Positions 30,137-60,221 of a stretch of DNA of 64,000 nucleotides are shown in pieces. The stretch lies in sequence record NC_028925.1. One strand, given 5' to 3'. The stretch is from Escherichia phage vB_EcoM_VR25. The notes under the pieces were generated by a model. The model did not search any database. It was not told the origin of the DNA and saw nothing but the letters and a program-made list of their open reading frames with translations. The position numbers were made by a program, and so were the translations under genes. The first letter of the stretch is position 1. Each line of letters opens with the position of its first letter.

Positions 30137-30669
30137 ACACCAAGCTCCTTATAAAGTTCTTCGCGACAAGTTTTCAGAATTTTACCAGTTTCATAAGCTG
30201 TGCTTTCAGAAACATCACCAAGTGCAGCGGCAGCTTGCATTTGGCCATGGCGTTTAGCAGCATATTCAAAACTTTTTACTAGCTCACGAATACGTTCTTT
30301 TTCATTGTATTCTTCAATAAATTCTGGATATTCCCAAACAGGTCGCATCATACGATACCACAGTTGGATGGTAATATAATTACTTCCATCCAGATTAATA
30401 ATTTGTGAAGGCTTAATAGCGCCAGGAGCATAAAAAGTTACCTGTCTTACTACATCAATACCATCCACAATAGCCCAAGCAAAATCGAAGGTGGCCTTCT
30501 TTTCAATTGGCGTGCTCGCACAAGACCCTAACTTTAAGAGCTTTTGTAATACAGGAGATTTAACTCCTGAAATGTACACAGGATTAGCTACAAAGCTGTT
30601 ATCACGTAATGACATAATAGTTTCCTCAAATATTTTATAATCCGTGGGAGCATTATACTCTGCTCCCAA
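30133..30669 (-). CDS. hypothetical protein
   Basis: 178 aa ORF; start may be internal (MSLRDN). Confidence 0.5.
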   Translation of the reverse strand: MGAEYNAPTDYKIFEETIMSLRDNSFVANPVYISGVKSPVLQKLLKLGSCASTPIEKKATFDFAWAIVDGIDVVRQVTFYAPGAIKPSQIINLDGSNYITIQLWYRMMRPVWEYPEFIEEYNEKERIRELVKSFEYAAKRHGQMQAAAALGDVSESTAYETGKILKTCREELYKELGV

Positions 30670-30681
30670 GAGTTTGTAAAC
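30646..30681 (-). promoter_or_regulatory. early promoter cassette with stem-loop enclosing the -10 box (PeSL-like)
   Basis: Minus strand GTTTAC-N18-TATAAT; inverted repeat gggagc/gctccc flanks the -10. Confidence 0.5.
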
Positions 30682-30780
30682 TACTTTCCAAAAAGACCAT
30701 CAATACACATGCTGAATACAATTCCAAAACAAAAGCATGCAAAACCCAATCTAAAAACATCCCACCCATCGATACAGGCT

Positions 30781-31074
30781 TCAATCATGACAACGCTCCT
30801 CTTTTAGTTCAGAACGATAATAACATAACATACCTTTTTGGTCATGTACATATCTTTTTACATCATTCATCCAAATCCGGAATTCTTGCGATGCTTCAAA
30901 AGGCATACCAACCCATGGTTGACCGTCAATTACCTTCACTTCCCATTGCTGACGGTATTCCATTAATGTCTGTGGCCAATTAGGATGAACTTGAATTGTG
31001 GGCTCCACAACGGGCTTCTGGGCGCATGAAACAAGTCCAATAGCCAAACATACTGCCATGATAGATTTCATCAT
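30781..31074 (-). CDS. o-spanin (outer-membrane lipoprotein spanin subunit)
   Basis: 97 aa; lipoprotein-type signal MMKSIMAVCLAIGLVSCAQ; immediately downstream of i-spanin-like gene with 4-nt overlap; T4 pseT.2-equivalent position. Confidence 0.6.
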   Translation of the reverse strand: MMKSIMAVCLAIGLVSCAQKPVVEPTIQVHPNWPQTLMEYRQQWEVKVIDGQPWVGMPFEASQEFRIWMNDVKRYVHDQKGMLCYYRSELKEERCHD

Positions 31075-31424
31075 TTGGTGAGCTCCTGGAAGTCCTGGGC
31101 GAACTTATCAAATGACTGGTTAATTTGTTTTTCAACTAATTTAGGCTTAGCTGCCACAACCTTAGTACGTTTTGCATCTGCACGAAGTTTATCATTTTCC
31201 TTCTGCAGAAGTTCAACATATTCCTGGCGCTCCTGGTCAAGGAGATTAATTTGATTGACCTGGTCTTTTATTGATTGCAGATTTTTCGCGTTATCTTCTG
31301 CAACTTTGGTGACCGCAGCCACCTCTGTCTTGAGATTATCCACTTTTGCTTTTAGATAGAAACCACTACCAGCAGTTACTACCAGGGCGAGCATAAGCCC
31401 CGCAGTGATATTACTTATTTGCAT
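31071..31424 (-). CDS. i-spanin (inner-membrane spanin subunit)
   Basis: 117 aa; N-terminal TM helix (ITAGLMLALVVTAGSGFYL) then coiled-coil-like periplasmic part; T4 pseT.3-equivalent position. Confidence 0.6.
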   Translation of the reverse strand: MQISNITAGLMLALVVTAGSGFYLKAKVDNLKTEVAAVTKVAEDNAKNLQSIKDQVNQINLLDQERQEYVELLQKENDKLRADAKRTKVVAAKPKLVEKQINQSFDKFAQDFQELTK

Positions 31425-31918
31425 AACTTGATGATTACCTCAACAATATCATCCTGGGATAAACCATTCAGGAGGATGTGATTTGTACTGTCAGATGCTG
31501 AAATGCGGAACTGATTACCAACTTCATCCGCCATATCATCCTGGGTTAACACTGGGTGCTTAATTCCCAGGCGGTGTTGAAGTGTCAGGGGTTCAACCAC
31601 AACATAACAAACACATCCATTGATATGCACATTAGGTTGGGTCTGATTGATGAACACTTCTGCATCATATTTAACCAAATGGTTCTTTAAGAAGTCAACC
31701 ATTTCAGGAACAGATTCATGAAGGGCTTCTTTCCGCTCTTCTGATTTCTTATTGCGATATTCCTTCTGTTTGGTCTTCAACTTATTATCAGACGCCAGTT
31801 TCTTTCTTAAGTCAGTAAGGAACCCAACATTTTTGGAACCTTTATAAACATAGATTCCGTCATGGCGGTCACCATATACATCAACAATCATATCATTTGA
31901 AATCAGTTGCATATTCAT
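31415..31918 (-). CDS. hypothetical protein at the T4 alc position (167 aa from MNMQLIS)
   Basis: ORF 31415..32017 with start probably at internal Met; size equals remembered T4 Alc (167 aa) but sequence identity not verifiable by eye. Confidence 0.45.
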   Translation of the reverse strand: MNMQLISNDMIVDVYGDRHDGIYVYKGSKNVGFLTDLRKKLASDNKLKTKQKEYRNKKSEERKEALHESVPEMVDFLKNHLVKYDAEVFINQTQPNVHINGCVCYVVVEPLTLQHRLGIKHPVLTQDDMADEVGNQFRISASDSTNHILLNGLSQDDIVEVIIKLCK

Positions 31919-31928
31919 AATATTTTCC

Positions 31929-32162
31929 TCAATAGCGGTTATAACCTCTAGGACCAAAAGAGTTTGCACCCAGGCGCTCATCTTTCTTTTTGGCTCTTGC
32001 TCTAAACCCAGAATCACCTGTTTGGTCTTTCAGTTCTTTTAACAATTTGGCCTTCAGGTCAGTAATGAAACCAATCCGGCGGTCTCCCTTGTAGACATAG
32101 ATTCCATCATTTCTGTCACCATATGCCTTTGTAACTCTGTCATTTGAAATTAAGTTTAACAT
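31929..32162 (-). CDS. short paralog of the N-terminal ~40 aa of the alc-position protein
   Basis: ORF 31929..32195; LISNDRVTKAYGDRNDGIYVYKGDRRIGFITDLKAKL aligns with LISNDMIVDVYGDRHDGIYVYKGSKNVGFLTDLRKKL of the next gene. Confidence 0.4.
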   Translation of the reverse strand: MLNLISNDRVTKAYGDRNDGIYVYKGDRRIGFITDLKAKLLKELKDQTGDSGFRARAKKKDERLGANSFGPRGYNRY

Positions 32163-59299: not shown

Positions 59300-59307
59300 A
59301 TATCACC

Positions 59308-59448
59308 TTACCAGATTAACGAATGTACTGCCATTATAGCATCAGAAATAAAAAGCACAACCTGCACTAATGCAAACATAACTCCATAATACAGCGCTAC
59401 CAATAAGGTAGCAAGGGCTAACGAGTAGCCCAAGATTTTCTTAATCAT
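59308..59448 (-). CDS. small membrane protein, 46 aa
   Basis: Hand-translated [46 protein letters not shown]; below ORF-track cutoff. Confidence 0.35.
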   Translation of the reverse strand: MIKKILGYSLALATLLVALYYGVMFALVQVVLFISDAIMAVHSLIW

Positions 59449-59629
59449 TGCTCACCGCGGAAACCATAAATTTAACAAAGGCATCAACTACAAACCATCC
59501 ACACAAGAAATAAACAAACCACATAGGCGGGATGAAGACACCTGCGACAAAAAGAGTTACTAAAACAATGACCGCCACTAGATAAATGAATGAAAAGACT
59601 GATGTCATATTTTCCTCAAGGGCGTCCAA
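59441..59629 (-). CDS. small membrane protein
   Basis: 62 aa with two hydrophobic helices. Confidence 0.45.
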
Positions 59630-59697
59630 AGACGCCAGTTAATTTCAGATTATGACGATGCCATTGCATCACATGTTCGTTATGGAAATTACTCATA

Positions 59698-60147
59698 TTA
59701 ATAGCTCTGCAGAATAAATTTAAAGTTATCAGCAAGCATGCGATTCATTTCTGAAAGGGTCTGGCAATCAGAACTATGCGAGCGAGTGAACGCCATCGCA
59801 ATTTGACCTTTACCATAACCAGTTGTCAGAGGTTTCATTTTAGAAACCGGGACAAACAGGACTTCATAGATAACCCCATTGTTCGCCATTGTGCGAGACA
59901 GTTGTGAACGCTGTTTGCGGATGTGACTTAATACAGTGTCAAACCCTTGTTGTGAACGTTGGTTACCAACATAAAAACGTGCAGCAACAATACGTGATTC
60001 GCCTTCACCTTTGACCACGAAATAAAAACCTGGTTGGGTAATAGCTTCTTTAGTTGGACGACCCGCAACATAATTACCATTATGGATGTAAGCAATAGTG
60101 GTAGCGCCGGCATTCAGTACGTCACGACGAGTCATGTAAGTAGTCAT
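59698..60147 (-). CDS. ndd: Ndd nucleoid-disruption protein
   Basis: 149 aa; matches remembered T4 Ndd (…NAGAT…KPGFYF…[19 protein letters not shown]…MKPLTTG.GKGQ.A.AFTR…[14 protein letters not shown]). Confidence 0.85.
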
Positions 60148-60185
60148 ATTAATTTCCTCAGTAAGTTAAAGTTTTGTGCTCCAGT

Positions 60186-60221
60186 GGGGTCATTATACTC
60201 TGACCCCAAGAGTTTGTACAC
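60186..60221 (-). promoter_or_regulatory. early promoter cassette with stem-loop enclosing the -10 box (PeSL-like), paralog of 30646..30681
   Basis: Minus strand GTGTAC-N18-TATAAT; inverted repeat ggggtc/gacccc flanks the -10. Confidence 0.5.

Follow-up and report, generated by a model that had tools for sequence, protein, structure and literature searches.

Early-promoter and stem-loop cassettes in the genome of Escherichia phage vB_EcoM_VR25

Genomic Context

A stretch of 64,000 nucleotides of Escherichia phage vB_EcoM_VR25 (NC_028925.1), referred to here as the window, contains two near-identical copies of an early-promoter element about 30 kb apart, each with an inverted repeat around its -10 box. 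The two copies are part of a larger set of cassettes that belong to the known promoter early stem-loop (PeSL) class, in a genus not analyzed before. The finding is real and largely ordinary.

The phage is a VR7-like coliphage of the T4 type and belongs to Gaprivervirus: a 6-kb stretch around the first element has 98.8% identity to Escherichia phage vB_EcoM_VR7 (Tevenvirinae, Gaprivervirus). The same stretch has 88-93% identity to SP18, VR20, VR26, and several TH phages. Gene names were moved over from the VR7 annotation by coordinate transfer. Early and middle genes on the minus strand form two blocks, at 15.7-45 kb (alt ... 30.x, 31, cd, pseT, alc, rnlA, nrd, td, frd, 32, 59, and rnh) and at 54-64 kb (asiA, arn, motA, 52, ndd, denB, and rIIB), which are separated by tail-fibre genes on the plus strand.

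The Repeated Element

The element is 38 nucleotides in length, and its copies lie on the minus strand at 30644-30681 and 60184-60221 (P30681 and P60221, the flagged pair). Read on the minus strand, the first copy (30681..30644) is GTTTACaaactcttGGGAGCagagTATAATGCTCCCac and the second (60221..60184) is GTGTACaaactcttGGGGTCagagTATAATGACCCCac. Both have the form GTKTAC-N18-TATAAT, with the -10 box enclosed by a stem of 6-8 base pairs (bp). An initial annotation, made from the sequence alone, had placed two near-identical minus-strand promoters of this form here, with the -10 box inside an inverted repeat; the sequences were found at both sites and both copies agree with that description. A degenerate 38-nucleotide pattern with the variable positions masked matches exactly two sites in the window and none in 100 dinucleotide shuffles. 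The copies are also the reference pair of repeat family D1, the largest family of dispersed direct repeats in the window (86% identity), which includes four further promoters in register with them.

P30681 and P60221 differ at five positions, one in the -35 box and four in the stem. The four stem differences make up two compensatory pairs, A-T to G-C and G-C to T-A. By our own arithmetic, the chance that four random differences would fall as two complementary pairs is about 1e-5. Folded as RNA, P30681 has a free energy of -16 kcal/mol (z -4.65) and P60221 of -15 kcal/mol (z -2.89), so that both hairpins are more stable than those of shuffled sequences. Both copies are kept in 8/8 Gaprivervirus genomes examined, and P30681 is kept in 8/8 relatives and in a Dhakavirus-like genome. 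The 3' arm variants found in Gaprivervirus, GCTCCT and GTTCCC, give G.U wobbles in the sense-strand stem. At P60221, the G of the TAG stop of ORF283c is shared with the -35 box.

Duplication of a gene together with its promoter was considered as the source of the pair and rejected, because similarity does not extend past the leader and the genes on either side are unrelated.

An unannotated open reading frame (ORF) of 35 codons, MIEACIDGWDVFRLGFACFCFGIVFSMCIDGLFGK, lies upstream of P30681 at 30681-30788 on the minus strand. Its start falls in an ATGA overlap with the pseT.2 stop, and the G of its own TAG stop is shared with the P30681 -35 box. A similar hydrophobic C-terminus is kept in the Dhakavirus-like genome L009. 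The stretch is a 165-nucleotide intergenic gap in the VR7 annotation.

Covariation of the Stems

Homologous places were located in 730 phage records with a 73-nucleotide query. The T4 motB.1-motB spacer, GTTTACaaactcttGGGACCagagTATAATGGTCCC, carries the same cassette family; its flanks are identical to those of the flagged pair, and its stem, GGGACC/GGTCCC, is a third stem that is compensatory to the other two. A Mosigvirus copy has the arms CGGGAGC/GCTCCTA. The Dhakavirus-like orthologue upstream of ndd keeps the flanks, the -35 box, and the -10 box, and its stem is CGAGAATC/GGTTCTCG, an unrelated sequence in the same register with three changes on both sides and a U.G pair. Orthologues upstream of frd.1 have three unrelated stems according to lineage (GGCTAT/ATAGCC, AGGGTAAT/ATTACCCT, and GGTGTAGGAG/CTCTTACACC), and the L047 and L049 orthologues of P39714 have stems that differ from that of the window. 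At the ndd junction, T4-like contigs have a hairpin, GGCCGC..GCGGCC, without a promoter.

This promoter-less hairpin upstream of ndd (~2430-2460) is inverted as a whole between L017 (GGCCGCgtattcatGCGGCC) and L018 (GGCCGCatgaatacGCGGCC), as is expected from the flip of a palindrome.

Cassettes were also gathered regardless of folding, which gave 129 unique sequences. The register denoted (4, 0), where the 5' arm stops 4 nucleotides ahead of the -10 box and the 3' arm starts directly after it, contains six out of six pairs in 18% of these sequences, compared with about 1.9% when partners are shuffled. A 13-sequence alignment anchored on the -10 box has changes on both sides in six of seven pairs. 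Its covariation was matched by 0 of 500 shuffles, and slid registers did not come close either. The paired fraction of 96.7% of cells in this alignment is inflated because the 13 sequences were chosen for pairing, and weight is therefore placed on the number of pair types and not on the percentage. Arms in the register enclosing the -10 box include GGGAGC, GGGGTC, and GGGAAC, and at least nine unrelated arm sequences occupy the same register. The 3' arm is always in the discriminator and is usually a G followed by a C-run. The initial annotation had read the stem differences at paired positions as a sign of selection for the hairpin; on the sequences compared, covariation among paralogues and orthologues confirms such selection.

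Inventory of Early-Promoter Cassettes

The window was scanned for the T-even early consensus, and all intergenic spacers of at least 30 nucleotides were folded. Sixteen early-promoter cassettes were identified, which are intergenic, lie on the early strand, and consist of GTKTAC-N17/18 followed by TATAAT, CATAAT, or TACTAT (Table 1). The sequence GTTTAC-N18-TATAAT with at most one mismatch has six matches against 0.6 expected. A generic scan for sigma70 promoters and terminators gave 35 promoter-like sites against 29.7 expected and had no discrimination. A significant embedded hairpin (z -2.4 or lower) is present in 7-8 of the 16 promoters, with z values of -2.8 to -5.4.

The cassettes can be sorted into four classes by the position of the stem. 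Class 1, in which the stem encloses the -10 box, includes 30681, 60221, 40694, 40005, 39714, 23445, and 61630. Class 2 has a small stem in the spacer (27468 and 17085). In class 3, promoter sequence pairs with the downstream Shine-Dalgarno (SD) sequence; its two members precede ndd.4 (61212) and ORF288c (61975). Class 4 has a canonical terminator, which is located just upstream of the A/T-rich region at 41023 (after gene 32), 23889, and 57778, and whose loop holds the -35 box at 32223. The composites at 23816..23930 and 57697..57826 are two copies of a repeat of about 115 nucleotides (D2, 75%). The stem sequence of P23445 is kept across genera with one G.U variant.

In almost all candidates the 25 nucleotides upstream of the promoter are 60-96% A+T. 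At P30681, P60221, and others, a stop codon adjoins the -35 box or shares nucleotides with it. Every cassette has an SD sequence and start codon (GAGGAAA..ATG or GGAG..ATG) 20-50 nucleotides past the -10 box. The cassettes of the window cluster in the frd, ndd-denB, 30.x, and pseT regions and lie beside ORF239c, ORF283c, ORF287c, ORF288c, and newC. The TH40 genome (171.7 kb) contains about 47 candidate cassettes, almost all on the early strand.

Table 1. Positions and parts of the cassettes and related elements in the window. Arms are given as 5' arm/3' arm; MFE, minimum free energy.
Feature	Position	Strand	Location	Promoter and leader	Hairpin or terminator
P30681	30613..30705	-	between unannotated 35-aa ORF (downstream of pseT.2) and ORF239c	-35 GTTTAC 30681-30676; -10 TATAAT 30657-30652; SD GAGGAA; ATG 30615-30613	GGGAGC 30667-30662/GCTCCC 30651-30646
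P60221	60145..60245	-	between ORF283c and ndd	-35 GTGTAC 60221-60216; -10 60197-60192; ndd ATG 60147-60145	GGGGTC 60207-60202/GACCCC 60191-60186
P40694	40632..40702	-	newC to frd.2; module boundary	GTATAC-N18-TAGTAT	8 bp around -10, GGGAACAT/ATGTTCCC; z -2.8
P40005	39942..40015	-	ORF254c to frd.3; module boundary	GTGTAC-N17-TACTAT	GTCTAT(GGT)/(ACT)ATAGAC; z -3.4
P39714	39655..39719	-	frd.3 to frd.1	GTTTAC; -10 TACTAT	GGGCTAT/ATAGCCT, compensatory T-A to G-C pair relative to P40005; z -4.7
P23445	23376..23452	-	30.8 to 30.7	GTTTAC-N17-TATTAT	11 bp enclosing -10, TTGGTACAGGT/ACCTGTACCAA; z -4.9
P61630	61561..61642	-	ORF288c to ORF287c	GTGTAC-N18-TATAAT	12 bp enclosing -10, CAGTATGGAGTC/GATTCCGTACTG; z -5.4
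Half element	37296..37325	-	td-nrdA spacer	TATAAG in loop	GGGGTCATG/CATGACCCC; GGGGTCA/TGACCCC as in P60221; MFE -18.2, z -5.1
P61212	61155..61220	-	ORF287c to ndd.4	GTGTAC-N17-TATAAT	long stem 61207..61161
P61975	61913..61975	-	denB to ORF288c (putative HNH nuclease, VR7 orthologue annotation)	GTTTAC-N18-AATAAT	
Gene 32 terminator and promoter composite	40994..41062	-	after gene 32	GTGTAC-N18-CATAAT, 41023-40994	intrinsic terminator GGGGACCTTCGGGTCCC with T-run, then A/T-rich stretch; no embedded hairpin; repeat families D3, D8
Terminator, UP, and promoter composite	23816..23930	-		GTTTAC-N18-CATAAT, 23889-23860; conserved leader	terminator
Terminator, UP, and promoter composite	57697..57826	-		GTATAC-N18-CATAAT, 57778-57749; leader	terminator 57826-57809
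rnlA/ORF243c cassette	32160..32235	-	rnlA/ORF243c	promoter 32223-32194; -35 GTGTAC; -10 CATAAT	-35 in loop of terminator-like hairpin AAGGGG/CCCCTT, then T-rich tail
Early promoter	27440..27468	-	cd.3 to ORF232c	GTTTAC-N17-TATAAT	small spacer palindrome CACCATGGATGGTG; not significant
Early promoter	17056..17085	-	alt to alt.-3	GTTTAC-N18-TACAAT	4-bp spacer stem GCAC/GTGC; not significant
Early promoter	54855..54884	-	upstream of asiA	GTGTAC-N18-TACAAT	no significant hairpin

The initial annotation listed five further copies that were said to follow the same logic. A true promoter with a hairpin is present at 40650-40694, 39684-39714, and 39977-40005 (z -2.8 to -4.7). The copy at 37296-37325 is called a half element because it has no -35 box, and the copy at 61158-61212 follows a different logic, pairing its promoter with the SD sequence. 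Members not listed before have a hairpin around the -10 box (23417-23445 and 61601-61630), a stem that reaches onto the SD sequence (61946-61975), a -35 box in a terminator-like loop (32194-32223), or a weak hairpin or none (17056-17085, 27440-27468, and 54855-54884), and there are three terminator and promoter composites (23860-23930, 40994-41062, and 57749-57826). An exact scan of IMG/VR for the 38-nucleotide core with free stem positions returned no match, the pattern being too strict. A search of the window against Rfam gave no matching family.

The td-nrdA spacer that holds the half element (37285-37398, 113 bp) is replaced by about 880 bp in TH15, TH40, TH55, and TH44. In TH54, this spacer has a 292-bp insertion.

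Exchange of Modules

In the interval from gene 32 to frd.1, eight genomes have six module orders, and every boundary is a cassette. The modules are {newC}, {frd.2 +/- ORF254c}, {frd.2a}, and {frd.3}. The frd.3 module is lost in SP18, and a cyclic permutation is present in TH40, TH55, and TH44. At the chimeric junctions, the upstream gene takes the A/T-rich region and the -35 box with it. Crossovers are located at UP/-35 or at the SD/ATG motif (gaggaaaWtaaaATG) and not in the stems, which travel intact. At least four different ORFs are found downstream of the P30681 cassette among phages.

In SP18 (L008, ~45120-45190), TH44 (L007, ~4200-4290), and VR26 (L011, ~2010-2090), the final ~18 codons of ndd.1 have given way to a GGGAGC cassette. 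The overwritten protein ends in ...VDV* rather than ...VDELMESSEEVDLWDSAVDPE*. This third GGGAGC copy indicates that a regulatory cassette has moved without any ORF. SP18 and TH44 have two direct cassette copies flanking ORF283c.

In the comparison with seven relatives, breakpoints are not enriched at cassettes: 7/16 cassette junctions have one, as do 25/56 of the others (odds ratio 0.96, p = 1.0). Many of the indels have exactly the size of an ORF and lie where genes overlap or are tightly spaced, with SD/ATG microhomology of 5-9 nucleotides, and others are insertions of homing endonuclease genes. Because breakpoints are equally common elsewhere and many indels are ORF-sized or endonuclease-linked, a recombination role is not specific to the cassettes. 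The cassettes take part in shuffling and are not privileged sites in this sample. Of the shuffling role reported for such cassettes in T4-type phages, the part that stands is that modules are bounded exactly by cassettes; breakpoint enrichment was not found and the crossovers lie outside the stem-loop.

Three small ORFs of 85, 93, and 58 aa (40700-40957, 55039-55320, and 56686-56862, all on the minus strand) each occur in at most one of the seven relatives compared. The N-terminus of the 85-aa ORF resembles that of frd.2, and the 58-aa ORF has the 9-nucleotide repeat AAAGTGAGG at its flanking SD sites. In TH15, a frameshift-like split leaves ORF254c as a pair of ORFs of 45 and 32 aa; the TH15 record is marked UNVERIFIED.

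Homing-endonuclease polymorphism occurs at three places. A mobE-like gene between pseT and cd.4 (28232-28932, plus-strand ORF) is present in the window, VR7, and SP18 and is missing from several TH phages. At 42036-42067, segG (32.1) is missing from the window and present in VR7 and SP18. At ~34983-35011, the nrdA-nrdB gap of TH15 is larger by about 715 bp.

Strand Asymmetry and Terminators

A strand-neutral search for imperfect inverted repeats found 26 G.T/T.G mismatches in unique stems, compared with 3 A.C/C.A mismatches. Of 91 cassettes, 58 fold more stably in the sense than in the antisense orientation (Wilcoxon p = 0.002). Total G.U pairs in the MFE folds (115 sense and 102 antisense) are uninformative, as antisense folds pick up unrelated pairs. 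The asymmetry of mismatches and folds fits a structure formed by the sense strand, with RNA as the simplest case. Transcription is expected to start 6-8 nucleotides past the -10 box, at or beyond the 3' arm, and the hairpin would therefore form only in RNA reading through from upstream.

The inverted repeats might instead act in DNA, as hairpins or cruciforms of single-stranded or supercoiled DNA that serve as preferred sites of recombination or replication restart, with mobility through excision and integration of PeSL mini-circles as their main role. One mini-circle crossover of RB49 was mapped within the loop (Arbiol 2010, PMC2839356). In addition, the deletion and permutation of cassette-bounded modules, the ectopic cassette copy without an ORF, and the whole-hairpin inversion between L017 and L018 at the ndd junction are all in line with such a role. 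The position of the crossovers at UP/-35 and SD/ATG with stems intact and the lack of breakpoint enrichment are against it, and a mismatch spectrum so strongly asymmetric between strands is unexpected of a cruciform. Stems of 6-8 bp with loops of 8-12 nucleotides also extrude poorly. Action at the DNA level is considered unlikely.

Embedded hairpins and canonical terminators are distributed in a complementary manner. A cassette was scored as having a terminator when a canonical terminator is upstream of, or overlaps, the -35 box. In TH40, a strong embedded hairpin is present in 0/7 cassettes with a terminator and 16/30 without (Fisher p = 0.012; Mann-Whitney p = 0.009), and in the window the corresponding counts are 0/4 and 6/11. 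This mutual exclusion is the best available evidence that the hairpin insulates junctions that have no terminator. It agrees with the report that one RB49 stem-loop cuts lacZ expression as a strong terminator does (PMC2839356). The promoter-less hairpin at the ndd junction of T4-like phages also speaks for an insulator role.

A second alternative is that the complementarity tunes the promoter, with the 3' arm serving as a discriminator (-6 to +1, G/C-rich like that of rRNA P1), the 5' spacer arm affecting opening or escape, and selection acting on initiation kinetics. In favor of this, the arms keep a constant register with the -10 box, and the invariable placement of the 3' arm described above would also be accounted for. 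In the sigma70 open complex, however, the spacer remains double-stranded, which makes an intrastrand hairpin impossible. The arm sequences are free to vary provided that pairing holds, and the hairpin of T4-like phages at the ndd junction has no promoter at all. A role intrinsic to the promoter also does not predict that hairpins would be missing just where a terminator precedes the promoter. Promoter tuning is regarded as quite improbable.

Pairing with the Ribosome-Binding Site

Two cassettes, P61212 and P61975, have a stem that involves the SD sequence. The promoter spacer of P61212 contains CATCTCC, which pairs with GGAGATG at the SD and start. P61975 has a 13-bp stem (61950-61938 with 61929-61917) that joins -10-proximal sequence to the SD GAGGA (MFE -17.6). 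The SD/anti-SD pairing of ndd.4 covaries across four genera: Gapriver- and Dhakavirus-like phages have CATCTCC/GGAGATG, T4-like phages have TTCCTCCGT/ACGGAGGAA, and a contig of more distant relationship has AGTACTCCT/AAGGAGTACT. An SD-masking stem whose 5' arm is missing from the cassette's own transcript is found only for P61212 and P61975 and not for the flagged pair.

Placement of a promoter within a hairpin that masks the SD sequence is an established arrangement in I-TevI, segB, and mobE (PMC2988022). As in I-TevI, segB, and Aeh1 mobE, the SD sequence of ndd.4 and ORF288c would be masked on long transcripts, while the promoter in the stem would give RNA without the 5' arm (PMC2988022). 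The internal promoter is late in those systems and an early sigma70 promoter here (PMC2988022). With an early rather than a late internal promoter, translation of ndd.4 and ORF288c would be limited to the immediate-early period.

This known T4 device could be extended to all of the hairpins, each masking a ribosome site on read-through RNA so that translation of a gene would depend on transcripts from its own early promoter alone. The case is clear for ndd.4 and ORF288c, but the flagged pair and most other members close their stem 20-40 nucleotides upstream of the SD sequence, which is excluded from the pairing, and a general translational switch is accordingly given very little credence. Least probable of all is a role of the palindromes as operators, bound by a dimeric protein that would switch off the early promoters. 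Their overlap with the -10 box is typical of repressor sites, and T4 early transcription is shut off a few minutes post infection by a mechanism that is not fully settled, but at least nine unrelated arm sequences share one register, complementarity alone is conserved, and G.T mismatches are tolerated.

Comparison with Known PeSLs

PeSLs were defined in RB49/phi1 (PMC2839356) and extended to T4/PST and KVP40/nt-1 (PMC4122927). Gaprivervirus is covered in neither paper (PMC2839356, PMC4122927), and no paper was found in the literature that describes PeSLs for the VR7-like group; Arbiol et al. go no further than to mention PeSL-like sequences near JS98 gene 43 (PMC2839356). As published, PeSLs have stems in five positions, G-T pairs, arms with a G-run and a C-run, and about 52 copies per genome in phi1/RB49 (PMC2839356). 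Of the five stem positions, four are found here: the stem surrounds the -10 box, lies within the spacer, covers the -35 box, or precedes the promoter in the A/T-rich region. Pairing of promoter sequence to the SD sequence is an additional type. The cassettes have a sigma70 early promoter, an A/T-rich upstream region, a stem-loop with G-T pairs, an intergenic location, and an SD sequence and ATG; they are numerous on the early strand, concentrated in hyperplastic regions and beside ORFans, and they bound differences in gene content among close relatives. The PeSL-like identity that the initial annotation had suggested is borne out by these features. The exception is the published preferential plasticity at the cassettes, which was not found here and which is a claim about the role of the family and not about its structure.

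The cassettes resemble the RB49/phi1 PeSLs in the G-run and C-run arms, the G-T pairs in the stem, the SD and ATG end, the approximately 50 early-strand copies per genome, and the variable ORFs that they border; the -35 box is the T-even GTKTAC here and TTGACA there (PMC2839356). Terminator activity and mini-circles were demonstrated by experiment in those phages (PMC2839356). The T4/PST PeSLs have the same consensus, TTTACW-N17-TAYWAT, and the T4 motB.1-motB spacer belongs to the same cassette family, but the paper places the PST/T4 stem-loop just upstream of the promoter, while the main class of the window has it around the -10 box (PMC4122927). A further difference from RB49/phi1 is that breakpoints in the present comparison are not enriched at cassettes and crossovers occur at UP/-35 and SD/ATG. 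Integron attC sites, to which Arbiol et al. drew an analogy, are reportedly imperfect palindromes that border single-gene cassettes, with structure conserved and sequence not. No integrase is involved here, and the exchange looks like short-homology recombination at promoter and ribosome-site motifs, so that attC is an analogy only.

Proposed Function

The preferred reading is that these are composite cassettes of the PeSL class whose hairpin most likely acts as an insulator in read-through RNA, to which we assign a probability of about 0.78. It draws on the sequences themselves, the covariation, the strand asymmetry, the distribution complementary to that of terminators, and the shuffling of modules at the cassettes, each of which was observed directly. 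Each cassette would be a strong early promoter for host sigma70 that restarts transcription for the next small early gene. Its parts are an A/T-rich upstream stretch, a GTKTAC -35 box, a spacer of 17-18 bp, a TATAAT, CATAAT, or TACTAT -10 box, a conserved leader, and a strong SD sequence with ATG. In about half of the cassettes, an inverted repeat interleaves with the promoter, mostly in register (4, 0) around the -10 box. On read-through RNA, the resulting hairpin may attenuate or terminate the read-through, protect the 3' end of the upstream message, or both, and this insulator job would be done at junctions without a canonical terminator. In the anti-SD subclass (ndd.4 and ORF288c), the ribosome site would be masked in read-through RNA, and only promoter-initiated RNA would be translatable. 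The cassettes are probably also short-homology substrates, because they share motifs of 15-40 nucleotides (UP/-35, -10/leader, and SD/ATG); exchange at these motifs could delete, insert, permute, or copy ORF modules or the cassette alone.

Several points weigh against this reading. About half of the early promoters in the window have no significant hairpin. The percentage of paired cells in the 13-sequence alignment is inflated, as noted, and the events behind the mismatch counts are not fully independent, the independent ones being, by our count, ~14-16 for G.T and 2 for A.C. The G.T excess could also come partly from G>C skew of the sense strand or from mutation bias. The hairpins around the -10 box lack a following U-tract, both in the spacers of the window and in the terminator scan, and they are therefore not intrinsic terminators of the canonical type. 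The published terminator assay covers a single RB49 stem-loop. The promoters and their start sites are predicted from the consensus and from homology to the T4 intergenic element, where the one related record that labels the motB-upstream element a 'promoter' gives no basis for the label. The breakpoint counts, the ORF-sized indels, and the endonuclease insertions described above also belong here.

A more specific reading goes beyond attenuation. The hairpin that closes exactly around N4 and the -10 hexamer could be a particular sense-strand RNA signal on read-through early transcripts, recognized by its 10-nucleotide loop NNNNUAUAAU on any stem, with shuffling in T-even hyperplastic regions driven by the near-universal UP/-35 and SD/ATG microhomologies and not, as in the PeSL model, by the stem-loops. 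One possible example would be a processing or decay-stop site at which an RNA-binding factor, from host or phage, would define the 3' ends of early messages. This combined proposal is conceivable but doubtful.

Additional Features of the Window

The spacer from rIII to 30.9 (24093-24394) is a 296-nucleotide non-coding sequence that is highly structured (MFE -73.8). Five relatives have about 150 bp in place of its segment at 24215-24266. A promoter cassette was not recognized in this spacer. A 65-nucleotide direct repeat (74%) at 31839-31903 and 32086-32150 joins alc to ORF243c, which lies upstream of it. ORF243c is annotated in VR7 as similar to the Alc N-terminus, and the repeat indicates a partial duplication of alc. 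A 30-nucleotide tandem repeat (93%) is located at 52750-52809 within the divergent distal tail-fibre region.

Significance

The cassettes can be used in annotation as reliable calls of early promoters and operon boundaries in T4-type genomes. The model of PeSL-mediated shuffling is qualified, as breakpoints are as frequent at ordinary gene junctions and are located at promoter and ribosome-site motifs. PeSL architecture reaches the VR7/SP18 group (Gaprivervirus), and one cassette family is common to Gaprivervirus, Mosigvirus, and T4, with stems that change only by compensation. On the level at which the hairpin acts, which the original papers left open, the covariation, the G.U-biased mismatches, and the mutual exclusion with terminators argue for action in read-through RNA.

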